Positions 209-62,302 are shown, counted from the stretch's first letter. The stretch is DNA of 64,000 nucleotides from Nanobdellota archaeon (GCA_022703705.1 JAKLDD010000002.1:4597-68596), one strand, 5' to 3'. The notes: generated from the sequence alone by a model not told the origin. Numbers and translations are program-made.

Positions 209-751
209 ATGGAAAAAGAAGAAAATGTAATAATCTTAGAATATCTTCCAAATGGATATCCATTGGAGAAAAAAATGATGCCCATAGCGCAGGCTATTGG
301 TGAAAATAATTTAATTCTACTAGAACTTGTTCCTAGAAGAGGTGTTGAATTAAAAATAGGGGAAAAAGTTTATATTGGAGAAGGTAAAAGAGATAAAATA
401 TATTATATTCTTGGGAGATTACACCGAGAAAAACTTACTGAAAGCGCAAAACGACAATTAGAAGAATTTATAAGCAACCTTGTTAAAGAAAGAGAAAATG
501 AATATGTTGAATTTTTCAACAAATCCGATGCAATAAATAAAAGGGTTCACCAAATAGAACTCCTTCCGGGACTTGGAAAAAAACATATGCAAGAAATACT
601 CAAACAAAGACAAGAAAAACCTTTTGAATCTTTTAAGGATATCAAAAGCAGAATACAAAATCTGCCTGATCCTGAAAAAGCAATTAAAAAAAGAATTTTT
701 CAAGAATTAACAAACATGGAAAGATACAATCTTTTCACAGGAAAAAAATAA
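209..751 (+). CDS. DUF655-family protein (OB-like N-terminus plus HhH; putative nucleic-acid binding)
   Basis: 180 aa. Motifs ILEYLPNGYP, LLELVP, FFNKSDAINKRVHQIELLPGLGKK are typical of archaeal DUF655. Synteny with rpoF. Confidence 0.8.
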   Translation: MEKEENVIILEYLPNGYPLEKKMMPIAQAIGENNLILLELVPRRGVELKIGEKVYIGEGKRDKIYYILGRLHREKLTESAKRQLEEFISNLVKERENEYVEFFNKSDAINKRVHQIELLPGLGKKHMQEILKQRQEKPFESFKDIKSRIQNLPDPEKAIKKRIFQELTNMERYNLFTGKK

Positions 752-752
752 A

Positions 753-1256
753 ATGGTAGAACAGAAAATTCAAGAAAAACGAGAAGAAAGATTAGTGAGA
801 ATCTTATCAAAAGATATTGAAGGAAAAATGAAAGTTTATGTTGGATTAACAAAGATAAAAGGAGTTTCTTGGGCATTTTCAAATGCAGTTTGCAAATCTC
901 TTAAAATAGACAAAAACAAAACAATTGGAAGTTTAACTGAAGACGAAATAAAAAAAATCTCTGAGTTCATAAAAAATCCAAAGCTACCTGCATATCTTTT
1001 GAACAGACAAAAAGATATTGAAAGCGGGGAAGAGAGACATCTAATTGGAACAGATTTAGATTTAAGAAAAGATTTTGATATAAAGAGATTAAAGAAAATA
1101 AAGAGTTACAAAGGATTAAGACACACCTCTAAACTTCCTGTAAGAGGTCAAAGAACAAAGGCACATTTTAGAACAAATAGAAAAAAAGGTTCTGGAATTA
1201 AAAAGAAAGGTGGGGAAAGCGCTTCTAAAAAACCTTATGAAGGAGCAAAAAAATAA
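753..1256 (+). CDS. rps13: 30S ribosomal protein S13 (uS13)
   Basis: RILSKDIEGKMKVYVGLTKIKGV..., YKGLRH..LPVRGQRTK; first gene of the S13-S4-S11-RpoD order. Confidence 0.92.
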   Translation: MVEQKIQEKREERLVRILSKDIEGKMKVYVGLTKIKGVSWAFSNAVCKSLKIDKNKTIGSLTEDEIKKISEFIKNPKLPAYLLNRQKDIESGEERHLIGTDLDLRKDFDIKRLKKIKSYKGLRHTSKLPVRGQRTKAHFRTNRKKGSGIKKKGGESASKKPYEGAKK

Positions 1257-1257
1257 A

Positions 1258-1488
1258 ATGAAAAATAAATATGGTTTAATTTTAGGAATTGGTATTTTAG
1301 CTTCTTTTGGACCAATTACATATACTGCATATAAGGAAAAAGAAAATAATCTAACAAATATAGATAAAGGGCTATTTGGAGTAGGATTGTTAAGTTTAGC
1401 TGCAACATATTCTTATGGAATAGATAAAAACCCTAATTTAAATAGCATAAAAAAAAGAAATAAATTAGAGAAAGGGGTAAAAAAATAA
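1258..1488 (+). CDS. small 2-TM membrane protein (76 aa), hypothetical
   Basis: ATG 2 nt after the S13 stop. Two hydrophobic segments (LILGIGILASFGP, LFGVGLLSLAA). The track ORF 1210..1488 has an overlapping N-terminal extension that is unlikely to be real. Confidence 0.5.
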   Translation: MKNKYGLILGIGILASFGPITYTAYKEKENNLTNIDKGLFGVGLLSLAATYSYGIDKNPNLNSIKKRNKLEKGVKK

Positions 1489-1489
1489 A

Positions 1490-1981
1490 ATGAAAAGAAA
1501 GCATAAAAGATATTCAAGACCAAAAAGACCTTTTGAAAAAATTAGAATAGATGAAGAAAAAGAAATTGCTAAGAATTTCGGTTTAAAAAATAAAAAAGAA
1601 ATATGGAAAGCAGAAGCAAAAATTAAATCTATGAGAGAAAAAGCAAAAAAATTAATTTCTGCTAAACCAGAAGAGCAAAAAGCACTTTTTAATAAATTAA
1701 ATAAAATTGGGATAAAGGTGGATTCTATTTCTTCAGTTTTATCTTTAAATAAAGAAGATTATTTAAAAAGAAGATTGCAAACCGTTTTAGTTTCAAAAAA
1801 AATAGCCTCAACCCCAAGAGAGGCGAGACAATTAATTGTTCATAAAAAGGTTCTTGTGAATGAAGAAGTAGTAAACATCCCATCTTATATTGTTCCATTG
1901 GAATTAGAAGATAAAATAAAATTAAAGAGTAAAAAAATTAAAAGTAAAAAAGAAATAGGAGAAGAAAAAAATGGAGAATAA
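1490..1981 (+). CDS. rps4: 30S ribosomal protein S4 (uS4)
   Basis: KRYSRPKRPFEKIRIDEE..., S4 domain RRLQTVLVSKKIASTPREARQLIVHKKVLVN. Confidence 0.92.
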   Translation: MKRKHKRYSRPKRPFEKIRIDEEKEIAKNFGLKNKKEIWKAEAKIKSMREKAKKLISAKPEEQKALFNKLNKIGIKVDSISSVLSLNKEDYLKRRLQTVLVSKKIASTPREARQLIVHKKVLVNEEVVNIPSYIVPLELEDKIKLKSKKIKSKKEIGEEKNGE

Positions 1982-2474
1982 AGAAAAATTAGAAAAAGAA
2001 ATCTCTGAAGATGAAGAAATTGCATCTGAGGAAAATGAAGAAGAAAAATCAGAAGATAAATCTGAAAAAGAAGAAGAGAAAAAAGCCAAAAAAAAGGAAA
2101 AAGAAATAGAGGCTGTCCTTAATATTTATGCTTCATTTAATAACACAATTGCACATGTTACTGATGCTTCGGGAAGAACAATCGCAAAGGTATCTGGAGG
2201 GATGGTGACTAAACACAGTAGGCTTAAAGCAAACCCTACAATTGCGATGTTTATTGCAAAAAGAATTTCAGAAACAATGAAAGATAGGGGAATAAAGTCC
2301 TTATATGTTAAAATCAGAGCACAAACAGGCAACACGAGTCCAGGTTCTGGAGCAAATGCAATAATAAAAAGTTTATCCAGAGACGGGTTCAAAATATTAA
2401 ATATTTTAGACAACACCAGAATTCCTAGAGGAGGTCCAAAAAAGAAAGGGGGACGTAGAGGAAGAAGAGTTTAA
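1971..2474 (+). CDS. rps11: 30S ribosomal protein S11 (uS11) with ~45-aa E/K-rich N-terminal extension
   Basis: Core NIYASFNNTIAHVTDASGRTIAKVSGG..., C-terminus IPRGGPKKKGGRRGRRV. There is no internal start codon, so the acidic extension appears to be translated. Confidence 0.9.
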   Translation: MENKEKLEKEISEDEEIASEENEEEKSEDKSEKEEEKKAKKKEKEIEAVLNIYASFNNTIAHVTDASGRTIAKVSGGMVTKHSRLKANPTIAMFIAKRISETMKDRGIKSLYVKIRAQTGNTSPGSGANAIIKSLSRDGFKILNILDNTRIPRGGPKKKGGRRGRRV

Positions 2475-2498
2475 ATATGGAAAATAAATAATTAAAAA

Positions 2499-3206
2499 AT
2501 GGAAACAATAACAAAAAAAGATAACAAATTTGTATTTAAAGCAAATATAGATGAAAGTCTAGCAAATGCAATAAGAAGATATGTAAATCAAATACAAATT
2601 GTAGCAATTGATGAAATTGAAATAATAAAAAATGATTCTCCATTGTATGATGAAACCATTGCACATAGACTAGGATTAATTCCTCTTAAGCAAAATACAA
2701 AAAAAGAAGGAAAATTAAAATTAGAAACTCAAAAAGAAGGATTTGTTTATTCTGAATCTTTAATGGGAGATTTTGAAGTAGTTTATGGAAAAATACCAAT
2801 TACACTCTTAAATAAAGGGCAAGAAATAGAAATTATTGCATATGCAAAAAGTGGAAAGGGAAAAGACCATGCAAAATTTTCTCCAGGTATAATGAGCTAT
2901 AGAAAAGCATTTGAAATTAGCATTGATAAAGAACTAGCAGAAAAAGTAAGAGCAAGAATCTTAGATATTCACTTAGATATTAAAGGTGAAAAAGCAATAA
3001 TAATAGATAATAAGGAAAATGAAGTTTGTGATATTTGTGAGGGTCTTGCTGAAAAATATGAGAAAAAAATTGATATAAAACCTCTGAAAGAAATTGTTAT
3101 CTCCTTAGAATCTTTTGGACAAATCGATGCAAAAAGCATATTTACTAAATCCATTGAAACCTTAAAAAAAGACTTGGGTGAACTAGATAAGAAAGTAGGC
3201 AAGTAA
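2499..3206 (+). CDS. rpoD: RNA polymerase subunit D / Rpo3
   Basis: LANAIRRYV..VAIDEIEIIKNDSPLYDETIAHRLGLIPLK; position after S11. Confidence 0.9.
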   Translation: METITKKDNKFVFKANIDESLANAIRRYVNQIQIVAIDEIEIIKNDSPLYDETIAHRLGLIPLKQNTKKEGKLKLETQKEGFVYSESLMGDFEVVYGKIPITLLNKGQEIEIIAYAKSGKGKDHAKFSPGIMSYRKAFEISIDKELAEKVRARILDIHLDIKGEKAIIIDNKENEVCDICEGLAEKYEKKIDIKPLKEIVISLESFGQIDAKSIFTKSIETLKKDLGELDKKVGK

Positions 3207-3322: not shown

Positions 3323-3580
3323 TTATTTGGGCTTATTTGCAGAATCCTCTTTTGAAAAAATATCCAGTAGATCTTCTTTATACAAATTATATACTATGGA
3401 AATTATGCCCATAATAAATCCGGCAGAAAAGAGAATTCCCAGCAATACGTCATCAAAAACATCTTCAGGGGATTTTTTAGACAAAGAGTAGAGTATCTCA
3501 AAAATAATGGCGATTAGAAAAATTAATGCGGTAGAAACTGTCAAAATTTTCCCAATAATAAGAATGACTTCTTTTTTCAT
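3323..3580 (-). CDS. small membrane protein (85 aa, 2 TM)
   Basis: ORF with two hydrophobic helices, preceded by the conserved AGAGGACAAAAAAATGAAA cassette. Confidence 0.6.
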   Translation of the reverse strand: MKKEVILIIGKILTVSTALIFLIAIIFEILYSLSKKSPEDVFDDVLLGILFSAGFIMGIISIVYNLYKEDLLDIFSKEDSANKPK

Positions 3581-3626
3581 TTTTTTGTCCTCTAAAATTT
3601 AGTTAAAAAGTATTACAATAGAATCA

Positions 3627-4144
3627 TCAATAATTATCATCTAACTCATATAAAATCCACCCCCCTACAATAAGAATAATTCCGAGGATTACCAACCCAA
3701 AGCAATACAAAAGCCAAACAATAGGAAAATTAACCTTAAACCAAATCCCTCTTAGAGTCTTAAGCATTTCATCTGCTCCTCCTTGCTCTTGTTCGGTAAT
3801 TTGCTGTATTGCAGTTTGATATCCAAAAGAAGAGATGTCCATATCTTTTATCTCGTACAACCTTTTTTGAAGAGATTTCAATGCATCAAAGTTTTTATCA
3901 AAACTATTATTAGGAGTTTTGAAGATTAATGCATTGTATTCTCCATAAAGGTTCTCTTTTGAAAGTGCTTCCACAAAGCAATCAATATGAATTGCCTTAC
4001 CTGAAATAGTCGAGGATTTATCTGCTAAATCCCAATAAGAAGAAACATTCTTCTTGTAAGTGTAATCTCCATAGATACCTACGCCAATCAAGGTAAGTAT
4101 TAAAAGTGCTCCGATAACAATTAAAAAAAACTAAATGCTTTCAT
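3627..4144 (-). pseudogene. membrane-anchored protein, frameshifted (or mis-assembled) in an A8/T8 homopolymer
   Basis: ATG at 4144 follows GGAGGACAAAAAAATG and encodes MKAFSFF, then hits TAA. Adding one T in the T8 run (4123-4130) gives MKAFSFFLIVIGALLILTLIGVGIYGDY..., in frame with track ORF 3627..4091. Confidence 0.55.
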
Positions 4145-4174
4145 TTTTTTGTCCTCCTAAATTTAAAGTTAATA

Positions 4175-4345
4175 TTAACGACACAACATACTTTCTCCAA
4201 ATTCAATTTTGGTTATAACTGATTCATACGTAATCCAATTACTAAGAATTGCGCAACAGAGAAACACAAGACCCAAGAAGATTATAATTATCTCCCCATA
4301 ATTCTTTTTAAGGAAAGAACCAATTTTTAACAAAAGTGTTTTCAT
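4175..4345 (-). CDS. small membrane protein (56 aa), below the ORF-track cutoff
   Basis: Hand translation: MKTLLLKIGSFLKKNYGEIIIIFLGLVFLCCAILSNWITYESVITKIEFGESMLCR*. Confidence 0.4.
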   Translation of the reverse strand: MKTLLLKIGSFLKKNYGEIIIIFLGLVFLCCAILSNWITYESVITKIEFGESMLCR

Positions 4346-4451
4346 AATTTAATTTTTAAAAAGTTAATATTATTTGAATGTTTTTTAGTTTTTATATAAA
4401 GAGGAAATATGCTGTTCTGCCTAAATGCAGACTATTGTTTTCAAAAGAAAT

Positions 4452-4512
4452 GAAGGCTCCTGCAAAAGATAAAAAGATTAAGCTACGAAAAAAAGAACGC
4501 ACAGGAGCCTTC
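4452..4512. terminator. 11-bp GC-rich stem (gaaggctcctg/caggagccttc) with 39-nt loop
   Basis: Perfect inverted repeat just downstream (minus sense) of the stop of gene 4544..4819. Confidence 0.4.
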
Positions 4513-4543
4513 AAACAAACATCTTCGGGTGAAGTTTTTTTAA

Positions 4544-4819
4544 TCAAACAGAATTGCCATCTCTTTTATTCTTCTTGTGTTCTTTTCTACAAGAAGATAT
4601 CCATTCCCGGATAGATGTTGCGAGCCAAGATAAACCGGCAAGAGCGCATAATATACTGATTATCAAAAAGAGATACCATCCTGAAGAGGGGGGGCCATTA
4701 CGTGTTTCTCCAAATATTTTGTAAAAGATAAAATCCAAGGAGAGTAAACCCAAGAATAATGCCCGGAAGATTCTGTTCGGGGTCCATTCACTTTTCTTAA
4801 TTTGTGATTCGTCTTTCAT
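4544..4819 (-). CDS. membrane protein (91 aa, 2 TM)
   Basis: ATG at 4819 is preceded by GGAGGACAAAAAA. The track start at 4834 is the TTG inside the SD cassette. Hydrophobic segments LFLGLLSLDFIF and WYLFLIISILCALAGL. Confidence 0.6.
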   Translation of the reverse strand: MKDESQIKKSEWTPNRIFRALFLGLLSLDFIFYKIFGETRNGPPSSGWYLFLIISILCALAGLSWLATSIREWISSCRKEHKKNKRDGNSV

Positions 4820-4842
4820 TTTTTTGTCCTCCAAAATTTAAT

Positions 4843-5271
4843 TTATTTTTTATTACCAAAGTAAATTTCAACTGAAAATTTATCGTACACTTCATAGAAA
4901 AGTTTAGACTCTATGCTGTGAGAGCACATGTGTTCTGCCTTAAACAGAAAACAATTAATTTTGTAATTTAACCCGACAGTATACTCTATTTGGAGAGGAT
5001 CATAAACATCAATCTTCTCGCATTGAAAGTAACTTTTAATCCCTGTATAAAGGGAGAATTTTTTATAATCTGCATTAAGATTAATCTTTGCAAATTCGCT
5101 CTTATTTAACAAGTTCGACTGGATTTCCATTCCTGTAGTTGTACCCTCATTAAGGCGAACTATTCTACTCTCATACCCTAACTCAAGAGAACCCCCTGTT
5201 TCTATCTGAGAAAAAACTAGGCAAATAGGGTAAAGAAGAAAAAGCAAAGAGAAGAAAATTAACTTTTTCAT
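4843..5271 (-). CDS. secreted beta-rich protein with Sec signal peptide (142 aa)
   Basis: MKKLIFFSLLFLLYPICLVFSQ signal. The mature part shows alternating hydrophobic/polar beta-strand periodicity (LELGYESRIV, FSLYTGIKSYF, EYTVGLNYKI, FSVEIYFG). Confidence 0.6.
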   Translation of the reverse strand: MKKLIFFSLLFLLYPICLVFSQIETGGSLELGYESRIVRLNEGTTTGMEIQSNLLNKSEFAKINLNADYKKFSLYTGIKSYFQCEKIDVYDPLQIEYTVGLNYKINCFLFKAEHMCSHSIESKLFYEVYDKFSVEIYFGNKK

Positions 5272-5309
5272 TTCCTTAATATTAAGATTTAATTTTAATG
5301 ATTTGAGGA

Positions 5310-5648
5310 TTACTTTCTCTTGTAAGCAAATATACCCCAGGACAGAGTAGTTATAATATAGTTTGGAAAAAGATACAGGCCCAAGAGAATAAGAACAAAA
5401 AAAACATCAACACTATGGAAGTATCTTGCAAGAGATACAATCTCTAGAGAGTACAAGCCTAAAAACAAAAAGAAATACGGGTAAAAATTATTGAAGTATT
5501 TTTCACCTTTAACTTCCTTATCTATATATGCCACGGTGTGAGCAGCAAAGAACGGAACAAATGTTCCAAGGAAAATCGTGGGGGGTTTAGATTTCAAATG
5601 AAGAACATCTGAAATCGATTGTTTAAATTTTAGAATAAATTTTTTCAT
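5310..5648 (-). CDS. membrane protein (112 aa, ~4 TM)
   Basis: ORF with several hydrophobic helices. Confidence 0.55.
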   Translation of the reverse strand: MKKFILKFKQSISDVLHLKSKPPTIFLGTFVPFFAAHTVAYIDKEVKGEKYFNNFYPYFFLFLGLYSLEIVSLARYFHSVDVFFVLILLGLYLFPNYIITTLSWGIFAYKRK

Positions 5649-5726
5649 TGCTTTAAAATTTAAAGAATTAATATTAATTGATTATATTTTGTTCTGTATA
5701 AAAACAGAGTATTATTTTAAAAATAA

Positions 5727-5761
5727 AAAGGGCAAATCAGCTGAATTCAGAAATGCCCTTT
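5727..5761. terminator. hairpin aaagggca/tgcccttt with inner palindrome ctgaattcag; T-run on minus strand
   Basis: Inverted repeat followed on the minus strand by tttttattttt. It lies just after the stop of gene 5770..5973. Confidence 0.5.
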
Positions 5762-5769
5762 CGTTAGAA

Positions 5770-5973
5770 TTACTTTATTAACTCAATTAATTCTGGTGGT
5801 AAACCTGCAACTTCCCAGATGATAGAAACAATTGAGAAAGTAATTAGGATAAATATAATCAACGCTATGATTATATTCTTACTCCCTCTCTGATAATCAG
5901 AGTTTTTTAATACTCTTCTTATCCAAAATATGGAAAAGATAAGCATAACCAAAATAACAACAATTGCTTTCAT
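5770..5973 (-). CDS. small membrane protein (67 aa, 2 TM)
   Basis: Internal Met MKAIVVILVMLIF.. avoids overlap with the upstream lipoprotein gene. The track ORF extends to 6039. Confidence 0.45.
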   Translation of the reverse strand: MKAIVVILVMLIFSIFWIRRVLKNSDYQRGSKNIIIALIIFILITFSIVSIIWEVAGLPPELIELIK

Positions 5974-5981
5974 AAATAGAA

Positions 5982-6629
5982 TTATTTGGTCTGTCTTGCC
6001 ATAACATATAAACATGAACCGGTGGCTGCCATCCAACAAGATATCCCCTCAAAATCACAAAGGAATTTAATTACATCTATTGACTCGTAATGGTTTCTTA
6101 TAATTCTATAGCATTTAAAGAAACCTATTCTCTTGGCTTGATCTTCAAGATATTTATCTGGCATTGGATAAAAATCATTGGTTTGAATTATATTATCAAC
6201 AACCAAATATTCATCATGTAAGAAGTTTTGATAATTCACCCCGTACATAAGAACATTCCCGGTTCGTGATTCAAAATCAAACCTTGTAAAGTCCACCAAA
6301 TTAATAAAATAAAGATCTCCCTCTGGAAGCATGCCCGGTTCCATTTTGATAATTTGCAACTCTGCCACTTTTACATTTTCATTATCTACATATTTGTAAT
6401 ATGGCAAAAACATCTGCACTGTTTCATTATTTTCACTTATCTGAACAGTTCCGGTGTTGTACGCTCCATAAGAAGCAAATAAGCATTCATACTTTGTCCA
6501 TTCTGGAGAAGTAAGAAATTCCCGAATCTCTTTTGGTTGAAAAATAGGAGATTCTTCTTTTTCTTTCTCACAATTATTTAATAAAAGAGTGAGAGAAAAA
6601 ACTATTAGAATAACAAAAAACTTTTTCAT
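5982..6629 (-). CDS. putative lipoprotein (215 aa)
   Basis: MKKFFVILIVFSLTLLLNNC: signal peptide ending in Cys (lipobox-like), followed by the acidic linker EKEKEES. Confidence 0.6.
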   Translation of the reverse strand: MKKFFVILIVFSLTLLLNNCEKEKEESPIFQPKEIREFLTSPEWTKYECLFASYGAYNTGTVQISENNETVQMFLPYYKYVDNENVKVAELQIIKMEPGMLPEGDLYFINLVDFTRFDFESRTGNVLMYGVNYQNFLHDEYLVVDNIIQTNDFYPMPDKYLEDQAKRIGFFKCYRIIRNHYESIDVIKFLCDFEGISCWMAATGSCLYVMARQTK

Positions 6630-6798
6630 TGATTTAATTTTCTAAAGATTAATTATTTCTATAACTCGCCAGCCAGGAATAGAATTGTTTGACTTTTACC
6701 TCCTTTTTTAAATTGTTAATATTATGTGAATTATTTTTTAAGTTCCTGTGTTATGAATTTGGAAATATGATTGTGAAAGATTATTTTCAAAAGAAAAA

Positions 6799-6849
6799 GG
6801 AAGCCCTCGAGGAAAAATATATTTTAAAGATTATACAGCGAAGGCTTCC
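6799..6849. terminator. 7-bp stem ggaagcc/ggcttcc with 37-nt loop
   Basis: Inverted repeat in the 290-bp gap after the stop of gene 6921..7532. Confidence 0.3.
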
Positions 6850-6920
6850 AAGAAATACAAAAATAACAAGCGCCTCATCTCAACAACCTTGTTCTACTCC
6901 AAGAATAATTTAACTAAGAA

Positions 6921-7532
6921 TTATTTCCTCCAATCTGCTCGCAAAGGCATTTCATTTCCGTTTTTATCAAGAACCCAGACTTCCCAATGTTTAATCTTCT
7001 CGAGAAGCGTCGGCTCATTATCTTCTTCCCCGAAATTCAAAAGAGGCATTTCTTCACTTGTTCGAACCAGGAACGTTGGAGAATATTTGTAAGGCTTGGA
7101 AGGGTCCGGAGAAGTTTTAGAAAATACAAACAAATCGCCTTTTTGCACAATAGTCAGATAATCCTGTAAATCCGCGATAGGCATACCCCAGTCCAATTTA
7201 ACAGATGGAAAAAGATACTTCGTTACGAAAAAGGACGATTCCGGATAGCTCAAAGTGTCCTGGAACAAAGAAAAATAAAACTTCTTTTCCGAGGGATAAA
7301 GATTTCCCTTAAGATCAATAACTCTTTTTTCTCCAGCAGTTATCCCAATAACTTTCCCGGGCTCAATCAAGGGGAAATTTGATACACTCTCTTTCATAAA
7401 ACCATAAACAGTTTGCACCTTTGGAGGGGGCGGGGGTGGCGGAGGGGGTTCTGGAAGTGTAACTTCTTTTTTCTTGCATCCTGCTTCTAAAGCAAGAACA
7501 AAAATCACAATTAAAAATAAAAACTTTTTCAT
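6921..7532 (-). CDS. putative lipoprotein with poly-proline linker (203 aa)
   Basis: MKKFLFLIVIFVLALEAGC lipobox-like signal, then KKKEVTLPE-P9-K. Confidence 0.65.
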   Translation of the reverse strand: MKKFLFLIVIFVLALEAGCKKKEVTLPEPPPPPPPPPKVQTVYGFMKESVSNFPLIEPGKVIGITAGEKRVIDLKGNLYPSEKKFYFSLFQDTLSYPESSFFVTKYLFPSVKLDWGMPIADLQDYLTIVQKGDLFVFSKTSPDPSKPYKYSPTFLVRTSEEMPLLNFGEEDNEPTLLEKIKHWEVWVLDKNGNEMPLRADWRK

Positions 7533-7670: not shown

Positions 7671-7716
7671 ATTTCGTGATATTTCGCGCGTATTTTATGA
7701 TATTTCAGGGTATTTC
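7671..7716. repeat. five phased copies of ATTTC/ATTTT at 10-11 bp spacing
   Basis: atttc at 7671, 7681, 7702 and 7712, and atttt at 7692, with an embedded cgcgcg. Located 140-185 bp upstream of the lipoprotein gene start (7532). Confidence 0.55.
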
Positions 7717-8030
7717 AGCGCTGTTCAAGAATGCTTTCTATAAAGAATTTTTGCTATTTTTAATATCGTGTCTAAATCGACGTCGGTATTTTAAAGATTC
7801 ACTTTGTTTGTTTTGTTTTTATTCAACAGAGTGATTTATTTCAGATCAATTAAAAATCTTGCAAGATTAACGAATTGTTATGGGTATAATTTCTATTTAT
7901 TGAAATTATTTGTGTTTGTTTTGTATCTTGTATGTCGATTTTTTGTGATGTTTGAAATTTTTGTGTTTGTTGTTTGTTTTATTGGGTGAATATGATTTGA
8001 TTGTGTGAATATGAATGTGAATTTTAAGTT

Positions 8031-10016
8031 TTAATGTGCATGAACATTTTCTGTTAATCTAATAAATTTTTTCCAGCCTCTTGCATTCTTCTCTTCCTGT
8101 ATTCTAATTAAATCTTTATCCAATAATTTATTTTTTATTATGTTTCCTTTTCTTGTGGATAATTTCATTTTATTATATAGTTCGACTGTGCTATCTTCAT
8201 GAAGAGAATTTTCTATTAAATAAACAATAAAGTCCATTTCTTCTTTATCCAGGGTTTTAAGTATAGGATATTTTTCCATTTTATCTTTTTTTAGATTTAA
8301 CTCAAATTCTTCTTTATTTAATCTTAAATTTATTAAAGAGTTTATTGCTTCCAAAATATCCCTTGAAGTATAACATTTTTCAAATAGCCTTCTCTCAAGA
8401 AGTTCTTCTATTTCCCTTAAACTCCTTCCTTTTTGCAGTTGTTCAGATATAAAAGAACGCAAGATTTCTTGTGTTGGAGTTAAGGTTGATTCAAGTTTAA
8501 CCTCTTCTATTTTCTCTTGCGGTTCCAAGGTTTTTATCTCTAATTTAATTTCTGTAACGGGCACAACTTCTAAGCTTTTTGGATTTGATGGATTAATTAA
8601 AGCTTCTTTGAATTCCGGGTCGTCTTTTTCAACTTCAATACCCTGAACAATACATTCCATTCTCTTTGCAATTATTTTATCATCAATTATTTCATTTCTT
8701 AATTCAGTAAATGGGACCTTTATTGAAAAAGGAAAAGTATACCTTTCTGAAAGTTTAACGACTGCAACCCCCACCGGAAGTTGGGTAAAGAGTTCTTTCT
8801 TTTCAGGAATTTGCATTATTGAACTAATATCATAAACATCTTGAGGTAATTGCTGCTGAAATGCTATATGGCATGCACTGTTTCCTTTTACTGTGTCGCT
8901 CAATTTGGATATATGTTGATCCAAACAGATTAATCCTGTACCATATTCTCTCATTTCTCTATAAACCATGTCTGTCACTGACTCGGATACAAAATAAGTT
9001 TTATTTTTCAAAAATATATTATGTGCTTCATCCACAATAATTGCGTGATTAAAACCTTCTGAGATTTTTAATTGATTTGCTTTTTTTAATTTATACAAAT
9101 AGGTAAGAATAAATTCACAGAAAAATTTCTTTTCAACATTTCCTAAGGAATTTAATTCAAGAATTACTTTTTTGTCGTATAAATCCTCAATTGAAAGACT
9201 TTTCTTACCATCATAATTAATTACTTTCCCAAAATCTCCAAATGTAAGCACTGTTGCTATTCTAAGAGCACTCTCATACCATGTTGCTTCTCTCCCCCTT
9301 GCTTCTCTTGCTTTTATTTCAAGCATTTTTTTTATATGTTGCCAATTAGGGTAATGAGGGGAACCCTTGTAAATGCCCCACCCTTCAAAAACTTCATCTA
9401 ATGTTTCCATTAAAACTTTATGAACTCCAAATGACACGCAAAAACTTTCTGTTAATAAATCGCATAGAACGTTAATCCATTCTCTTGGAGAAATTCCTTT
9501 TGGAGGACGATTGATGTTTGTCCTAAATAGGTTGCTTACTGAATCATTCCCTATTGTAAAACACATTACAGAAGAATCTGCTTTTAAAAGTGGACGGAAA
9601 CTTTTTTTCCAGTCAAATACTAAAAAAGGTTTGTCTTTTTCAACAAATCTTTGAAGAATATTTAAAGCAAGAGTAGTTTTTCCACTTCCACTCATCCCGC
9701 TTATACAAACATGTCTTGGCCAATCATTTTCTCTTAAACAAAAATTATGGAGCTCTTTTCCAGCATAGATCACTCTAGCCAAGTCGTATTCTCCAAGAAC
9801 AAATTTTTCTTCAGGAGGTTCTAACAACAGCTTTTTGTCTAAAAATTTTCCAAGATGTTTTTGATAAAGTGCCCCTAGAACACATAAAATCTGGTTTTTT
9901 TCTTCAAGCGAATCAGAAACAGTATATCTAAAATAAAGTTCATCTATTTTATTTCCTAAAATTGGCTTTAATCTTGAGCTTATTTCCTCTATTGAAAGGG
10001 TTTTTTGAATGGACAT
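8031..10016 (-). CDS. HerA/FtsK/VirB4-superfamily P-loop ATPase (DUF87/AAA_10-like) with C-terminal winged-helix domain (661 aa)
   Basis: Walker A VCISGMSGSGKTTLALN; FLVFDWKKSF; Walker B HAIIVDEAHNIF; GTGLICLDQHISKL. The C-terminal ~90 aa is wHTH-like (EMDFIVYLIEN..STVELYNKMKLSTRKGNIIKNKLLDKDLI). No TM segments. Confidence 0.7.
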   Translation of the reverse strand: MSIQKTLSIEEISSRLKPILGNKIDELYFRYTVSDSLEEKNQILCVLGALYQKHLGKFLDKKLLLEPPEEKFVLGEYDLARVIYAGKELHNFCLRENDWPRHVCISGMSGSGKTTLALNILQRFVEKDKPFLVFDWKKSFRPLLKADSSVMCFTIGNDSVSNLFRTNINRPPKGISPREWINVLCDLLTESFCVSFGVHKVLMETLDEVFEGWGIYKGSPHYPNWQHIKKMLEIKAREARGREATWYESALRIATVLTFGDFGKVINYDGKKSLSIEDLYDKKVILELNSLGNVEKKFFCEFILTYLYKLKKANQLKISEGFNHAIIVDEAHNIFLKNKTYFVSESVTDMVYREMREYGTGLICLDQHISKLSDTVKGNSACHIAFQQQLPQDVYDISSIMQIPEKKELFTQLPVGVAVVKLSERYTFPFSIKVPFTELRNEIIDDKIIAKRMECIVQGIEVEKDDPEFKEALINPSNPKSLEVVPVTEIKLEIKTLEPQEKIEEVKLESTLTPTQEILRSFISEQLQKGRSLREIEELLERRLFEKCYTSRDILEAINSLINLRLNKEEFELNLKKDKMEKYPILKTLDKEEMDFIVYLIENSLHEDSTVELYNKMKLSTRKGNIIKNKLLDKDLIRIQEEKNARGWKKFIRLTENVHAH

Positions 10017-10018
10017 TT

Positions 10019-10513
10019 TTACTTTGTTAAATCCTCCAGATTTTTTGGGTATTCAGAAATATTTGCTCCTAAAATATTTAAAATTCTTAATTGAAAAAAA
10101 TAATATCTTTCTATTTTGGATAGAATTTTTTCTTTAGTTGAATTAAATTTTGAACAAATATACCCTAATTCTCTTTCTTTTTCATCAAGTAAGCAAATTG
10201 CATCATGAAAATTTATACAATCTTGCAAAATTTCTTCGTGCTCCCAAATTTTCTCTTTTTTAAGATTTAACTTTTCTGTATAATCAAAAGGAGCATTCAT
10301 ATCAACAAAACTAAATTTATCCTGAATTTCGGAATTTTTAAGCAAGCTTTTCAATAACTGATGTTTTGACTTATTGTTTGGAGAATCTTCGTAAAAAATT
10401 AAATCATTTACAAAATATTTACAAAAATCCCCTCCAAAAAGAAAATCCTGAGTAGATTCATTATTTAAAAATTTTTCAATTAATATCTCGTGGGGATTTT
10501 TTCCATATTTCAT
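10019..10513 (-). CDS. hypothetical protein (164 aa), operon partner of the ATPase
   Basis: 2-nt gap to the ATPase start and 1-nt gap to the upstream gene. No motif recognised. Confidence 0.6.
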   Translation of the reverse strand: MKYGKNPHEILIEKFLNNESTQDFLFGGDFCKYFVNDLIFYEDSPNNKSKHQLLKSLLKNSEIQDKFSFVDMNAPFDYTEKLNLKKEKIWEHEEILQDCINFHDAICLLDEKERELGYICSKFNSTKEKILSKIERYYFFQLRILNILGANISEYPKNLEDLTK

Positions 10514-10514
10514 T

Positions 10515-10982
10515 TTATTTTCCTTCGTTTAAAATATCATTTAATTCTTTCATCCTGTTTTCTTTTTCACTCAGCTCCTTTTCATATATTCTGAGTTCTT
10601 TTTTCAAGAGCGAAATATCTTTCCAACAATCTATTTTTTCTTTTAATTGTAATTCGGCAATTTCAACCTTTTTATTTCTAAGGGCATTTTTTTCACTTAA
10701 GGCTTCACTCTGTCCGATAGAGGTATTTCTTAAGGTATTTTCATTTGAAAGTATTAAATTTTCAATCTCTAATTTTATTGAATCTCCTTCTTCTATAAAT
10801 TTTTTACTCAATGTTTTTCTATCTTCAATCAGCCTTTTTATCTCAGATATTGCATTTTTCAAAGAACTTATTTTTTCTTGCCCAAGGCTGTTGATTGAAC
10901 TCTCGCTTGAAAAATCGGTTATTTCAGGTTTTTCAAATCCTCTGAGCAATTTTTTGTTGTCCAAAAATCCACTAATTTCCAT
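10515..10982 (-). CDS. coiled-coil protein (155 aa), first gene of the ATPase operon
   Basis: Heptad-rich E/K/L sequence. TATA-like ctttataaag lies ~25-30 nt upstream of the ATG on the minus strand. Confidence 0.6.
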   Translation of the reverse strand: MEISGFLDNKKLLRGFEKPEITDFSSESSINSLGQEKISSLKNAISEIKRLIEDRKTLSKKFIEEGDSIKLEIENLILSNENTLRNTSIGQSEALSEKNALRNKKVEIAELQLKEKIDCWKDISLLKKELRIYEKELSEKENRMKELNDILNEGK

Positions 10983-11073
10983 AATTATTTAGTAGTAACA
11001 TACTTTATAAAGATTACCATTTTATAGCTATTAAATAGTTACATTAGATTAACAATAGAGAAGGTACAAAAGT

Positions 11074-11109: not shown

Positions 11110-11193
11110 GCGGATGTGCCGGAGTGGTCAAACGGGACAGACTCAAAATCTGTTGGCTTAGTGCCTACGAAGGTTCGAACCCTTTCATCCGCA
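11110..11193 (+). tRNA. tRNA-Leu (anticodon CAA at 11144-11146), long variable arm, no encoded CCA
   Basis: Hand-folded: acceptor GCGGATG/CATCCGC, anticodon stem ACAGA/TCTGT, loop CTCAAAA, variable arm TGGCTTAGTGCCTACG, T-arm GAAGG TTCGAAC CCTTT, discriminator A. Confidence 0.9.
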
Positions 11194-11236
11194 TAGAGAT
11201 GAATTAGAAATTTACAAAATCAAGGGAAAATTTCTT

Positions 11237-11248
11237 TTTCATCCGCAT
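11237..11248 (+). repeat. 12-nt duplicate of the tRNA-Leu 3' end (tttcatccgcat)
   Basis: Identical to 11183-11194, which is the T-stem/acceptor 3' strand plus 1 nt. Confidence 0.7.
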
Positions 11249-11280: not shown

Positions 11281-11292
11281 TTTCATCTGCGA
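11281..11292 (+). repeat. degenerate third copy of the tRNA-Leu 3' end (tttcatctgcga)
   Basis: 10/12 match to 11183-11194. Confidence 0.45.
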
Positions 11293-12853: not shown

Positions 12854-13279
12854 TTAAAAATTATTTTTCTTTTCTAGTTTATCTAATTTATCTTGAACAT
12901 GATTAAAAAGAGTTGTTGAAATAATTGGGGGGTGTTTTCCTTCAGAAATTTGCCCATCAAACCTAACTTTACCAACATAAACAAAATTTCTTAAAATTTT
13001 TTTTAATCCATTAACTGAAAAATTATGCTTTTCTGCAATTTTAGACAAGTTCATTTCTGGATTCAAAAACTCTTCAAAAATTTCTTCTACTTCTCTGTAG
13101 TTTTGCGCTAAAATCAATGTTTTTTCTTTAAAATCCCATTCATATCCGAAAGGGGATCTCGACATATGTTTTCCTTCAGAAAATTTTTTTAGCATTCCCT
13201 TTTTTTGAGATTTTCCTCGATCTTCCAATTCAGGTTTTAATTCTATTTCAAATTCGTGTCCACATTTAGGGCATTTCAT
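12854..13279 (-). CDS. Zn-ribbon plus serine-recombinase 'Recombinase' (DNA-binding) domain protein, lacking the catalytic resolvase domain
   Basis: N-terminal CPKCGHEF. SPFGYEW..LILAQNYREVEEIFEEFLNPEMNLSKIAEKHNFSVNGLKKILRNFVYVGKV matches the PFGY..EA..V..IF..SL..IA..LN...I..IL.N..Y.G pattern of PF07508. ATGA overlap with the xerA stop. Confidence 0.65.
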   Translation of the reverse strand: MKCPKCGHEFEIELKPELEDRGKSQKKGMLKKFSEGKHMSRSPFGYEWDFKEKTLILAQNYREVEEIFEEFLNPEMNLSKIAEKHNFSVNGLKKILRNFVYVGKVRFDGQISEGKHPPIISTTLFNHVQDKLDKLEKKNNF

Positions 13280-14109
13280 TTCATTAATTCATCTATAGGG
13301 GATTTTATCTTCTTTAATTCTTCTGTTGATATATGAGTATAAATTTGTGTTGTTGAAAGATCTGCATGCCCAAGCAATTCTTGTATTTTTCTTATATCCG
13401 TCCCGTTTTCTAAAAGATGGGTGGCAAAACTATGCCTCAAAGTATGGCAATGAATTTCCTTGTTTATTCCTGCTCTTTTTGCTGCTTTTGAAACAATTTT
13501 TTGCAAATTTCTCTCTGAAAGTTTTCCTTTTATTCCAGTAAATAAATATATTTCTTTTTTTTCTTTCTGCTTTTCTACTTGTTTTTTTAAATCTTCTAAT
13601 AAAAAATCTGGAATGTTAAAAATTCTATCTTTTTTTCCTTTTCCTTGAAGAATTTTTCCTGTTTTTTCATTAAAGTCCAAGTCCCCAATTTTTAAATTGA
13701 TTAATTCGGATACCCTAAACCCACAGGCATACATTAAAGAAACCATAATTTTTGATTTTTTCGTGTCCAATACTTCAAATAATTTTTTTGCTTCTTCTTT
13801 TGTTAAAACCGTGGGCAATCTCTTTTCTCTTTTTGGACGTTTAATTCCCAGGGTAATGTCTTTTTTTAATATACCTAAAAAAGAATATTTTAAAGCTGAA
13901 AGAAAAATAATTATGGATGAGGAAGCTTTATCAGAAAGATTCTCTGAAATATATAATTTTACATCATCTGATTCTATTTTCTCTGGATTTTTTTTTATAA
14001 ATTCAAGAAATTTTTTATTTGAATCCAAATAATTTCTCAGTGTATATAATGAATTTTTTGAAATTTTCAGTTCAACCTCTAATTTTTTTAAAAAATCTTC
14101 TGGAGTCAT
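13276..14109 (-). CDS. xerA: tyrosine recombinase XerA/XerC/XerD family
   Basis: 277 aa. ACGFRVSEL (Arg I), HTLRHSFATHLL (H-x-x-R), LGHADLSTTQIYTH (catalytic Tyr), N-terminal SAM-like core-binding domain. Confidence 0.9.
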   Translation of the reverse strand: MTPEDFLKKLEVELKISKNSLYTLRNYLDSNKKFLEFIKKNPEKIESDDVKLYISENLSDKASSSIIIFLSALKYSFLGILKKDITLGIKRPKREKRLPTVLTKEEAKKLFEVLDTKKSKIMVSLMYACGFRVSELINLKIGDLDFNEKTGKILQGKGKKDRIFNIPDFLLEDLKKQVEKQKEKKEIYLFTGIKGKLSERNLQKIVSKAAKRAGINKEIHCHTLRHSFATHLLENGTDIRKIQELLGHADLSTTQIYTHISTEELKKIKSPIDELMK

Positions 14110-18969: not shown

Positions 18970-19230
18970 TTAAATTAAATCTTCTTCAGAAACAATAACA
19001 AAATCACCTATAGCAATAATTGAACTATACGGTACCAAAAATTCTCCAGAAGAGGTTTTTTCAAGATTTAAATTTCTAGAATAAGGTGTGGGATCTTTTA
19101 AAACAACTCCAATTAACTCTCCGGATTTTGTTTCAAAAGTAATATCTTTAACATAACCTAATCTTTTTCCTTCTTTTGTTACTACCATTTTTCCAATAAT
19201 AACATTAAAGGGAGTCTTTTCTATTTGCAT
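18970..19230 (-). CDS. PRC-barrel domain protein (86 aa)
   Basis: Start at the internal Met MQIEKTPFNVIIGKMVVTKEGKRLGYVKDITFETKSGELIGVVL..IIAIGDFVIVSEEDL. The track N-terminal extension runs into the origin AT tract. Confidence 0.65.
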   Translation of the reverse strand: MQIEKTPFNVIIGKMVVTKEGKRLGYVKDITFETKSGELIGVVLKDPTPYSRNLNLEKTSSGEFLVPYSSIIAIGDFVIVSEEDLI

Positions 19231-19316
19231 ATTGAAAATAAAAGTAATCAATTTATAAACTTTTCTGTAAAAATATATAGAGATTTGAATGTATAAAACA
19301 ATCAAAATTTAAATCC

Positions 19317-19341
19317 CACACCCTTTTGTTTCTTATGGAAA
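19317..19341 (-). promoter_or_regulatory. ORB-like box 1 (inverted): TTCCATAAGAAACAAAAGGGTGTG
   Basis: Dyad TTCCAnnnGAAAC plus a G/T-rich tail, comparable to archaeal ORB/mini-ORB elements (TTCCAGTGGAAAC type). Confidence 0.6.
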
Positions 19342-19394
19342 TATTTATAAATCAAAATGAAAAATTTTATTTTATTTATTTATTTATAAAAATT

Positions 19395-19426
19395 TATATT
19401 ATATATTATATATTATATATTATATT
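19395..19426. repeat. (TATATTA)n heptamer repeat, ~4.5 copies
   Basis: tt doublets recur every 7 nt at 19399, 19406, 19413 and 19420. Confidence 0.8.
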
Positions 19427-19437
19427 TTACTATTTTT

Positions 19438-19461
19438 AATAATAATAATAATAATAATAAT
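19438..19461. repeat. (AAT)8 microsatellite
   Basis: Read directly from the sequence. Confidence 0.9.
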
Positions 19462-19667
19462 AAAAGAATTAAAAGAATCAAAAACACTATAAAAGTAATA
19501 TAACAATAACATAACAAGAAGACATAATTAATAACATTCTATCAAAAACATAAAAATTATAATAATTATAATAAAAGAAATAATTAAAATTTTGGTAATA
19601 AATTAAAAATAACAGCTAAAATCTCAAAAACTTAAAAATAGCACTTAAAATTCAAAAAAACTAATCA

Positions 19668-19690
19668 TTCCATTAGAAACGTAGGTGTTT
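19668..19690 (+). promoter_or_regulatory. ORB-like box 2: TTCCATTAGAAACGTAGGTGTTT
   Basis: Same dyad and G/T tail, in the opposite orientation to box 1 across the AT-rich region. Confidence 0.6.
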
Positions 19691-19764
19691 CTCTTAATTA
19701 GTGGTTATAATTCTTTATATAAGAAATACATTTTTTTCATCGATAATTTAATTAATTTTAAATT

Positions 19765-19788
19765 TTCCACAGGAAATAAACGTGTGAG
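19765..19788 (+). promoter_or_regulatory. ORB-like box 3: TTCCACAGGAAATAAACGTGTGAG
   Basis: Same dyad, 30 nt upstream of the cdc6 ATG. GAGGT SD-like element at 19806-19810. Confidence 0.55.
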
Positions 19789-19817
19789 ATAATGAAATTA
19801 AAACGCGAGGTTAAAAG

Positions 19818-21029
19818 ATGAAAATAGATATTGAAAAAATTTTTGATACTTTTGATAAAAATGGAATTTTTAAAAACAAATCTTTATTACAATCAAATTA
19901 TACTCCAAATGAAATTCCCCATAGAGAAGAAGAAATAAAGCAGATTGCTTCTATCTTGGCTCCAGTATTGAGGGGAGAAAAAACAAGTAATTTATTTCTT
20001 TACGGGAAAACAGGAACAGGAAAAACCCTTTCTGTCCAATTTGTTCAAGAAGAATTAAATAAGCGAGTAAAAAAAGATTCAAATTTTAAATTAAAAATAG
20101 AATATTTAAATTGTAAATTAAAAAAGGTGTCTGATACAGAATATAGAATTTTAGCAGAATTAATTAAAAAAATGGGGGGGGAAGTTCCTCAAACAGGGCT
20201 TCCAACTCAAGCAGTATATAACAAATTTATAGAAACAATTGATTCTGAAAGGCAAGTAATAGTACTTATTTTAGATGAAATTGATCAAACAGTAAGGAAA
20301 ATTTCAAGCGATTTTTTGTATAATTTAATAAGATTAAATTCAGAACTTTCAAAATCCAAGCTTTGTATAGTTGGAATTAGCAATAATTTAACCTTTTTAG
20401 ATGAAATAGACCCCCGAGTAAGAAGTTCCCTTTCAGAAGAGGAAATTGTTTTTCACCCGTATGATGCTCTTCAATTGCAGGATATCTTAAATAAAAGGGC
20501 AAGAATGGCATTTAAAGAGGGAGTTATTCAGGAAGGGGTTGTTTCTAAATGTGCCGCATTTGCTGCAAGAGAGCACGGAGATGCAAGAAGAGCCCTAGAT
20601 TTACTTAGAATAGCTGGAGAGTTAGCAGAAAGAGACAATTCAGGTAAAATTTTAATAAAACATATAGATGAAGCAAATAATAAAATAGAAAAAGATAAGA
20701 TTTTAGATGTAATTCAATCAGAACCCAAACAATTTCAGTTAGTTTTAAAGGCAATTATTTATTTATCTGAAACTCAAAAAAACGAACCCATTTTTACAGG
20801 AGATGTTTATAATGTATATCAGGATTTTTGTTTAAGGCATAAACTAGAAGTATTAACCCAAAGGAGAGTGGGGGATATAATTCAAGAGTTTGATATGCAT
20901 GGAATAATTAATATAAAAGTTATTTCTAAGGGCCGGGGAGGGAGAATGAGAGAAATTAAATTAGCAATTCCAAAAGAGATTACAAAAAAAGCAAATGAAA
21001 TTGTTGAACACTCCTTAAATTATTTATAA
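19818..21029 (+). CDS. cdc6: Orc1/Cdc6 replication initiator
   Basis: IPHREEEIKQI.., Walker A YGKTGTGKT, Walker B LILDEID, sensor GISNN, GDARRALDLLR, and a C-terminal winged helix. Confidence 0.93.
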   Translation: MKIDIEKIFDTFDKNGIFKNKSLLQSNYTPNEIPHREEEIKQIASILAPVLRGEKTSNLFLYGKTGTGKTLSVQFVQEELNKRVKKDSNFKLKIEYLNCKLKKVSDTEYRILAELIKKMGGEVPQTGLPTQAVYNKFIETIDSERQVIVLILDEIDQTVRKISSDFLYNLIRLNSELSKSKLCIVGISNNLTFLDEIDPRVRSSLSEEEIVFHPYDALQLQDILNKRARMAFKEGVIQEGVVSKCAAFAAREHGDARRALDLLRIAGELAERDNSGKILIKHIDEANNKIEKDKILDVIQSEPKQFQLVLKAIIYLSETQKNEPIFTGDVYNVYQDFCLRHKLEVLTQRRVGDIIQEFDMHGIINIKVISKGRGGRMREIKLAIPKEITKKANEIVEHSLNYL

Positions 21030-62209: not shown

Positions 62210-62302
62210 AGCCCCATAGTACAGTGGTCAAGTATACGGCCCTTTGGTGTTATTAAGTAATGGAGAAAGGCCGGGACCTCGGTTCGAATCCGAGTGGGGC
62301 TA
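62210..62302 (+). tRNA. tRNA-Gln (anticodon TTG at 62244-62246) with a 20-nt intron at the canonical 37/38 position (62248-62267)
   Basis: Hand-folded: acceptor AGCCCCA/TGGGGCT (A1-U72, typical of archaeal tRNA-Gln), D-arm GTAC AGTGGTCAA GTAT, anticodon stem CGGCC/GGCCG interrupted by tgttattaagtaatggagaa, T-arm CTCGG TTCGAAT CCGAG. Confidence 0.85.

Follow-up and report, generated by a model that had tools for sequence, protein, structure and literature searches.

A conserved pair of a charged helical protein and a HerA/VirB4-clade ATPase in Pacearchaeota/Woesearchaeota-type archaea, a candidate core nucleic-acid motor

What does a HerA-like ATPase do in an archaeal genome where no nuclease accompanies it and its companion genes encode proteins of no recognized family? 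The question is raised by three minus-strand genes at positions 8031 to 10982 of a 64,000-nucleotide stretch of DNA from a Nanobdellota archaeon (GCA_022703705.1, JAKLDD010000002.1:4597-68596), referred to here as the window (GC content ~29%). The preliminary description of this locus, made from the sequence alone, saw a three-gene operon on an accessory or mobile island and considered antiviral defense, conjugation-type transfer, or packaging as its function. Our comparison of related loci points to a different unit, the pair formed by the first and third genes, and to a history of vertical inheritance in which this pair appears to be kept about as faithfully as ribosomal proteins. The three genes are as follows, with positions counted from the first nucleotide of the window.

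10515 to 10982, minus strand: gene 1, charged helical partner, 155 amino acids
10019 to 10513, minus strand: gene 2, soluble slot protein, 164 amino acids
8031 to 10016, minus strand: gene 3, HerA/VirB4-clade ATPase (by Pfam, AlphaFold, and Foldseek), 661 amino acids

The open reading frame (ORF) coordinates agree with the gene calls made earlier, with 1 nucleotide (nt) between genes 1 and 2 and 2 nt between genes 2 and 3. The three genes are not, however, conserved as a set. A homologue of gene 1 lies upstream of the ATPase gene and on the same strand in 77 of 83 related loci, the remaining loci being truncated, and the divergence of this partner tracks that of the ATPase (Spearman 0.74). Gene 2, in contrast, has a tblastn homologue in only 4 of the 83. 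The slot between partner and ATPase is empty in ~26 of 66 loci, holds one gene in ~25, and holds up to 6 elsewhere, tightly packed and same-strand. The 59 slot proteins fall into ~40 BLAST-unrelated groups, among which Pfam recognizes only one isochorismatase and one FHA domain. Gene 2 belongs to the largest group, whose 8 members have the C-terminal motif G-x-D-[VI]-S-x-Y-P-x-x-L-E in common. The locus comparison thus points to the helical protein and the ATPase as the conserved unit; the 164-amino-acid middle protein is a lineage-specific accessory outside that core.

Some slot fillers resemble signaling or enzyme genes (L077 6531-8001, L036 6383-8005, and L068 5300-8004). Among them are an FHA-domain protein, behind which come two small proteins bearing a kinase-like hhIDFxxW motif, and isochorismatase-like proteins arranged in tandem; the kinase-like proteins and the second isochorismatase-like protein were read by eye, and Pfam confirms only the FHA domain and one isochorismatase.

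The gene 1 product is rich in E, K, L, and I and contains a single proline. It had been labeled a coiled-coil protein, a label that holds loosely: the protein is helical and has weak matches to coiled-coil proteins, but its heptad periodicity is not significant (p ~0.06). Alignment of its homologues reveals an invariant motif in the C-terminal half, E-x-Q-x-x-E-K-I-x-x-W-K-D...L..E.R. Profile searches against Pfam, NCBIfam, PHROG, PADLOC, and PDB returned nothing usable for the gene 1 and gene 2 proteins, in agreement with the earlier failure to recognize either of them.

The distribution of the pair is wide. In a scan of one genome per GTDB species, at least 210 species-level genomes encode a relative of the ATPase. 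A separate protein search gave 833 matches at E <= 0.001, and the 120 of them that were listed are all full length and 57-80% identical. The best 80 of the 210 loci come from metagenome-assembled genomes (MAGs) labeled Pacearchaeota, Woesearchaeota, or Nanoarchaeota, except for two bacterial-labeled contigs ("bacterium" and a Desulfobulbaceae MAG). The window ATPase itself matches at 100% identity a protein in NCBI that comes from a "Candidatus Pacearchaeota archaeon" MAG and whose sole annotation is "DUF87 domain-containing protein". Across the 35 loci that have L18e-L13-S9 alongside, the ATPase averages 61.9% identity to the window and the partner 54.4%, compared with 58.3% for L18e, 58.6% for L13, and 67.6% for S9, and ATPase divergence correlates with ribosomal-protein divergence (Pearson r = 0.81). 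In a neighbor-joining tree of the ATPase core, the L18e-adjacent loci form one clade, the loci that lie downstream of L35Ae-L10e-methyltransferase form a second, and basal lineages adjoin GatD/GatE, aminoacyl-tRNA synthetases, or TGT. The clade as a whole, which lacks the nuclease domain described below, is monophyletic, each synteny type is its own clade, and the upstream neighbors in all three contexts are translation genes.

This pattern is that of a vertically inherited core gene that is rarely relocated. Because the pair is kept as faithfully as ribosomal proteins, it looks like an uncharacterized core nucleic-acid motor rather than a mobile or defense gadget, and the earlier view of a module that is accessory or mobile today does not stand. 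The preliminary description had also named what would speak against an accessory origin, namely universal conservation at this position together with a known role. The pair is indeed kept here across the whole clade, but no housekeeping role is known for it and one relative has an empty site.

To which ATPase family does the motor belong? In its fold and in every catalytic residue, the 661-amino-acid protein agrees with the ring-forming HerA/VirB4 branch of the FtsK-HerA superfamily. It matches the Pfam DUF87/HerA central domain above the gathering score (E = 1.2e-10), and the four motifs noted earlier are all present between residues 107 and 368 on a RecA-like core: GMSGSGKT at 107-114 (Walker A), FLVFDWKKSF at 131-140, IIVDEAHNIF at 326-335 (with VDEAH), and LICLDQH at 362-368 (with LDQH). 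An alignment of 41 sequences that spans both the window's subfamily and a nuclease-bearing one keeps Walker A G107-T114, R141, E330-H332, R353/R356, and D366-Q367-H368 invariant, and with its catalytic residues so conserved the protein should be an active ATPase. The superfamily assignment made earlier is upheld by both Pfam and Foldseek, and the pair is an uncharacterized variant within this known superfamily.

An alignment of 41 sequences (32-77% identity) also underlies the AlphaFold model used here, which has a predicted local distance difference test score (pLDDT) of 82.6. It supersedes a model built from 22 close homologues, which had a pLDDT of 66 and gave blurred Foldseek ranks. From the N terminus, the model runs through a four-helix N-domain (residues 9-61) and a beta hairpin (77-94) into a RecA-like core (100-440) that contains a helical insert; a disordered linker (475-513) then leads to a helical domain (514-588) and a winged helix (591-654). 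The winged helix comprises helices at 591-602, 610-616, and 621-633 followed by a beta hairpin at 637-654, and a PHROG transcription-regulator match covers residues 597-656; model and match together bear out the C-terminal winged helix-turn-helix that had been proposed. Five residues of its recognition helix, S620, R622, G624, N625, and K628, are invariant within the clade.

Foldseek searches against the PDB gave Sulfolobus HerA (4d2i) as the top match (E = 1e-15), with a probability of 1.00 to HerA, VirB4, and TrwB. The highest template modeling scores (TM-scores), normalized to the target, were those of the VirB4 C-terminal domain (4ag5, 0.75) and DndH-C (7es4, 0.71), and other neighbors were the HerA proteins of SIR2-HerA, DUF4297-HerA, and TdpAB. 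The likeness to Sulfolobus HerA extends to the DUF87 domain, Walker A and B, the arginine, and the D-Q-H sensor region, and leads one to expect a hexameric double-stranded DNA pump. However, identity to HerA is only 14-18%, and in the model the four-helix N-domain and two-strand hairpin take the place of the HAS-barrel of canonical HerA. The window ATPase also adds a C-terminal helical domain, a winged helix, and a dedicated helical partner. A hallmark of canonical HerA is an adjacent NurA nuclease, usually with Mre11 and Rad50. We found none of the three among partners and neighbors within 8 kb or in related loci, and family scans agree with the earlier statement that the ATPase has no NurA, Sir2, or nuclease partner.

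None of the three proteins has a segment resembling a transmembrane (TM) helix: the highest Kyte-Doolittle mean over 19 residues is 1.32 in the ATPase, which had already been described as lacking such a segment, 0.63 in the middle protein, and 0.11 in the first. No paralogue of the ATPase was found in the window or in related loci. One basal relative (L072 2998-4308, minus strand) has a second, shorter HerA-like ATPase (436 amino acids; DUF87 + HerA_C), whose gene lies directly upstream of the partner gene in divergent orientation. A literature search on DUF87 in DPANN, HerA/FtsK in DPANN, and DUF8104 found nothing.

Where does such a pair come from? An exhaustive profile-free search recovered 3601 clusters at E <= 0.001, 294 of them at E <= 1e-30. 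A PD-(D/E)xK-type nuclease follows the winged helix in 88 of 92 representatives below 40% identity and in 0 of 11 above it; one of the nuclease-type representatives additionally carries DHH/DHHA1. The two subfamilies align by hhalign over the ATPase core and winged helix (E = 3.5e-99, 35% identity). In five genomic contexts, the nuclease-type ATPase is directly preceded by a protein of 150-210 amino acids that aligns with the window partner and has the motif W-[KEQ]-D...SL..E.R in common with it; this nuclease-type partner has a weak precomputed match to PF26406/DUF8104 (P0142-like family). The two families are thus true homologues in ATPase core, winged helix, and upstream partner. They differ in that the nuclease-type family keeps the C-terminal nuclease, occurs in diverse archaea and bacteria, and lacks slot genes, the downstream membrane-protein array described below, and the extra helical domain.

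The neighbors of the nuclease-type genes in these five contexts are integrases, Cdc6-like AAA proteins, methyltransferases, GmrSD, UvrD, and ThiF/JAB. This family sits in mobile-element or defense neighborhoods, and the DPANN clade is best read as its nuclease-less, domesticated branch. In this respect the mobile origin proposed earlier is partly right: the ancestry is plausible, as these outside relatives (30-38% identity) lie by integrases, Cdc6-like ATPases, methyltransferases, and GmrSD, but the pair is not mobile now. A search of IMG/VR viral contigs found no relative of either subfamily.

Two stretches of non-coding DNA accompany the pair, one before gene 1 and one after the ATPase stop. 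In the window they carry the following features.

11004 to 11018, minus strand: operon promoter, with TATA box TTTATAAA at 11004-11011 and a BRE-like stretch (resembling a transcription factor B recognition element) just upstream
11027 to 11042, minus strand: degenerate promoter-upstream element, window sequence GTAACTATTTAATAGC, consensus TGTAACT-N4-AGTRACAACA
7703 to 7799, minus strand: degenerate remnant of the downstream element, one hairpin with loop GTCGAtttAGAC, plus TGAAATACCCTGAAA
7671 to 7706, minus strand: two weaker copies of GAAATATC

The promoter is fixed in position. In the window, TTTATAAA starts exactly 29 nt before the ATG at 10982, and an AGAAAGR-TTTATAAA box begins at -29 in 63 of 75 related loci, with positions -35 to -22 carrying 0.7-1.8 bits each. 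A TATA box at -29 predicts a leaderless mRNA that starts at or next to the ATG, as the preliminary description had supposed. Farther upstream, 24 of 63 loci have ACT-N4-AGT at positions -57 to -55, followed by GTRACAACA, where shuffled sequences give 2.1 +/- 1.4; the window also has a palindrome at 11016-11039. Inverted repeats bracketing the TATA box were too weak (the longest exact repeat averages 4.8 nt, compared with 4.2 +/- 0.28 in shuffles), so they were dropped in favor of the positional ACT-N4-AGT element.

Downstream, the related loci have an unusually long non-coding gap after the ATPase stop (median, 348 nt). The repeat GAAATACC is concentrated there, with 129 of its 183 occurrences in 1.08 Mb of related loci falling within 500 nt after the stop. 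At least one copy is present in 57 of 74 loci, as 1-5 copies on the same strand between the ATPase stop and the array. The hairpins that separate the copies show covariation: RNAalifold places 30 pairs, 12 of them with compensatory changes, where shuffles give 5.9 +/- 1.8 and 0 of 500 reach that number, and 89% of cells are paired, compared with 25-51% in slid controls. The element, as seen in L004-L083 at 0-500 nt after the stop, is built of GAAAUACC repeats and 1-3 covarying hairpins with the loop GAWAAAGA, closed by a helix GAAAUACC:GGUAUUUC. Covariance models built from 8 and then 23 sequences found ~35 loci at E < 0.1, all at this position and on the gene strand and with the L10e-context clade not captured; another match below this cut-off sits elsewhere, on the other strand. 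The window retains only a weak remnant (20.9 bits, E = 0.0023 in a 901-nt search). Rfam contains no family for the element, which is thus new to it as a candidate structured RNA. A T-run and a BRE/TATA-like AAAAAGATTTTTTA just upstream suggest that it may be a small RNA in its own right. Helical phasing of GAAATACC was considered and set aside: the spacings lie near multiples of ~10.6 nt, but intervening hairpins with compensatory or G-U changes explain the unit lengths equally.

What might the pair do with such sequences? We tentatively favor, at rather less than even confidence, a hexameric DNA motor that is guided by sequence and has been domesticated for a housekeeping role. The motor would consist of the two conserved proteins, specific to the lineage and vertically inherited. 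By analogy with HerA, TraB, and TdtA, an ATPase hexamer would pump double-stranded DNA through its pore. The winged helix would position or load the ring on a specific sequence, for which the promoter-upstream element and the GAAATACC repeats are candidates, and the helical partner would regulate or tether the ring. After loss of the nuclease, the module may have been domesticated for a housekeeping task on DNA, for example to move, clear, or resolve the chromosome at division, or for repair. A precedent for sequence guidance is TraB, a translocase with a C-terminal recognition domain that recognizes direct 8-bp repeats in clt, near its gene (PMC4447253). FtsK, SpoIIIE, and TraB, which read short oriented DNA repeats (KOPS, clt) through a C-terminal winged helix, belong to the same superfamily as the window ATPase. 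The window protein too ends in a winged helix, and oriented 8-mer repeats that may be its target lie just after the window-type gene. The ATPase differs from the three in having no membrane domain and in a repeat region that covaries like RNA; moreover, it has no Pfam match to FtsK_SpoIIIE (PF01580), and no FtsK is among its top 50 Foldseek matches.

Several observations weigh against a domesticated DNA motor. Its relatives live in mobile-element or defense settings, and one relative (L089) lacks the island at this site. A variable slot and a hypervariable array downstream are features seen more typically at accessory, surface, or conflict loci than in a housekeeping motor. The downstream element has, at least in part, the look of a structured RNA, and binding of the winged helix to either DNA element is a candidate interaction. 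As the ATPase has no characterized close relative, its substrate, whether DNA, RNA, or protein, can be suggested from the modeled fold alone. Finally, the related loci were selected through the ATPase itself, so they describe how the pair is kept where it occurs rather than how universal it is in the lineage.

An unlikely alternative takes the ATPase to be the cytoplasmic motor of a Ced/Ted-, VirB4-, or TdtA-like envelope machine that is built with the products of the array and transfers DNA or protein between symbiont and host. The array lies on the strand of the operon.

3323 to 7532, minus strand: co-directional genes for small membrane proteins, lipoproteins, and secreted proteins, none matching a known family, which make up the variable rest of the island between ATPase and RpoD

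In the window, the array encodes two lipoprotein-like precursors with lipobox-like signal peptides and several two-TM hairpin proteins of 85-112 amino acids. The 5 kb after the ATPase in 57 loci contain 481 ORFs, mostly co-directional, and such an array accompanies the pair in each of the three chromosomal contexts. A TM or signal-like segment is present in 60% of downstream ORFs versus 26% upstream (odds ratio 4.3, p = 1e-25), an enrichment that is partly expected because the comparison set consists of cytoplasmic translation genes. No such array accompanies the nuclease-type relatives.

The position of the ATPase at the head of this co-directional array in all three clades suits an envelope machine, as do the adjacent small membrane proteins, the top TM-scores to the VirB4 C-terminal domain and DndH-C, and a weak similarity to CedD (NCBIfam, 1e-13). 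The C-terminal peptide motif of some slot proteins could be a recognition tag. There is precedent as well: CedD, whose architecture has been described, is required for DNA import in Sulfolobales (PMC11868833), and the stand-alone HerA-like ATPase TdtA drives DNA donation in Thermus (PMC5365140). However, the CedD score is 50.7 bits against a cut-off of 600, and the ATPase has neither a TM segment nor a VirB4-type N-domain, with a short helical bundle in its place. The winged helix is a further difference, since VirB4-type ATPases are not known to carry a DNA-binding winged helix. VirB4 and Ced systems have channel and pilin partners (VirB6/CedA and VirB2/CedA1). Here the genes that follow encode small two-TM proteins and lipoproteins, which are non-orthologous even between close relatives, and translations of the window array revealed no polytopic channel protein of the VirB6/CedA kind. 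Clustering of the array proteins leaves 403 of 461 clusters as singletons, a poor fit to a conserved machine, and the 348-nt median gap parts the array from the ATPase. The array marks a consistently placed hot spot of surface-gene turnover.

A broader variant would join the pair, the GAAATACC element, and the array into one DPANN-specific system, in which a HerA/VirB4-type motor, domesticated from a mobile element, exchanges nucleic acid or protein with the host across the symbiont envelope. The repeat element or structured RNA would be its loading signal or cofactor, and the rapidly changing membrane proteins would act as host-specific contact parts. We consider this combination improbable.

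An antiviral defense module of the HerA type, in which variable slot genes have replaced the ancestral fused nuclease, is likewise improbable. The best PADLOC matches of the ATPase do fall in defense families, with mad8 at 45.7 bits (1.5e-12), HerA of several systems at <= 31 bits, and DndH for relatives. Its structural neighbors include the SIR2-HerA, DUF4297-HerA, and TdpAB proteins; relatives lie by restriction-modification genes, GmrSD, AAA_15/21, and UvrD; and variable cassettes beside a conserved ATPase are common in defense loci. This resemblance to the defense ATPases of SIR2-HerA, DUF4297-HerA, TdpAB, DndH, and MADS (mad8) is confined to the structure and profile of the ATPase core, and the PADLOC scores are weak. 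The window contains no PADLOC match to an effector partner (Sir2, DUF4297, TdpB, DndFG, or mad1-7), and no partner protein matches any PADLOC model. The slot is vacant in about 26 of 66 loci, its proteins include no recognizable nuclease or toxin, and the conservation is vertical, at the level of ribosomal proteins, with congruent divergence and positions fixed across the clade. A virus or plasmid packaging module fares no better, as BFVD matches are no closer than cellular HerA and a PHROG terminase match spans only the P-loop. Of the three functions considered in the preliminary description (defense, conjugation or Ced/Ted/VirB4 transfer, and packaging), none found a family-level match in PADLOC, NCBIfam, PHROG, IMG/VR, or BFVD.

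A domesticated motor also has to be set against its surroundings, an island between two blocks of conserved genes.

209 to 3206, plus strand: DUF655-S13-S4-S11-RpoD, the left flank of the island
11110 to 11193, plus strand: tRNA-Leu(caa), the right-hand boundary of the island, with L18e-L13-S9 beyond

The island spans ~7.9 kb between RpoD and tRNA-Leu and is entirely on the minus strand; apart from the ATPase, profile scans of the window gave no family match for any gene in it. In the metagenomic relative L089, whose recombinase is 69% identical, DUF655-S13-S4-S11-RpoD is followed after 40 nt by tRNA-Leu(caa)-L18e-L13-S9, and both the island and the pair are missing from this junction. This contiguity supports the earlier observation that the island interrupts a conserved operon. 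L089 was the one informative locus in a presence/absence survey of metagenomes that used the recombinase as bait, the peptide patterns being generic Xer motifs. The insertion is common to the L18e-context clade, whose ribosomal proteins go down to ~50% identity, and the island is an insertion, but an old one.

These features raise the possibility that the island is an ancient, fixed mobile element and the pair its maintenance or transfer module, kept by addiction or inertia and not because it serves the host, which we regard as very unlikely. The empty site, the abutting tRNA gene, the integrases and Cdc6-like replication proteins that flank relatives, the fast turnover of cargo, and the occurrence of the pair in at least three chromosomal contexts all fit such an origin. 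Against it, no integrase, replication gene, or flanking repeat was found in the island, the pair is under strong purifying selection across a deep clade, no relative occurs in viral contigs, and each context is monophyletic. Integration at the tRNA was rejected, as the only repeats of its 3' end are 10-12 nt long and are found on its L18e side, away from the island.

These repeats, and several other features outside the island, are observations in their own right. The last 12 nt of tRNA-Leu (TTTCATCCGCAT, 11183-11194, plus strand) recur at 11237-11248, 54 nt downstream, and a third copy of 10 nt with one mismatch follows a further 44 nt on, at 11281-11290 (plus strand), before L18e; the copies could be old integration scars or a duplicated terminator. 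At 12854-14109, on the minus strand, is a pair formed by an Xer-type tyrosine recombinase (277 amino acids, Phage_integrase 1e-47) and a 141-amino-acid protein that overlaps it by 4 nt and whose sole domain is "Recombinase" PF07508. The two are co-conserved next to S9 in ~38 related loci (62-88% and 45-79% identity). An FtsK-XerD-like link between the ATPase and this recombinase (13276-14109) was rejected: they are adjacent only in the L18e-block clade, and the recombinase is absent from the other contexts, so the adjacency was treated as synteny and not as evidence. An Orc1/Cdc6 gene at 19818-21029 (plus strand) follows the most AT-rich kilobase of the window (GC 0.21; region 19001-21029), and the two probably mark a replication origin, ~9 kb from the operon. 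A functional link to this origin was set aside, as the flanks of the related loci contain no Cdc6. At 62210-62302 (plus strand), ARAGORN calls a tRNA with an odd four-base anticodon loop reading (tttg); Rfam confirms the gene at 53 bits, and an intron is possible. In a Pacearchaeota contig (L018 45-245, plus strand), Rfam matches the RT-16 RNA at 71 bits, above the gathering score, unrelated to the operon.

There is little probability, finally, that the ATPase with its winged helix regulates or remodels the hypervariable array through the GAAATACC element: the strand-specific placement of up to 5 copies between ATPase stop and array in 57 of 74 loci, the invariant recognition-helix residues, and the MarR or transcription-regulator type annotations of the C terminus in PHROG and JGI would suit a regulator, but the window element is degenerate although its ATPase is intact, the compensatory changes and G-U pairs argue for RNA rather than a DNA operator, and we know of no HerA-type ATPase that acts as a transcription factor.

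The domesticated DNA motor remains the reading that we tentatively favor for the pair. Archaea of the Pacearchaeota/Woesearchaeota type are abundant, uncultured members of the DPANN with tiny genomes, and whatever they keep as strictly as ribosomal proteins is likely to be central to their biology. The locus offers a testable candidate that comprises two proteins, a promoter fixed in position, and two possible cis elements, and yields as by-products a hot spot of surface-gene turnover and a candidate structured RNA without an Rfam family. The pair may represent a DNA-handling motor of archaea that is separate from HerA-NurA, SegAB, FtsK, and Ced, and is best read as a clean example of an ATPase-nuclease module of mobile elements that lost its nuclease and became a core gene.

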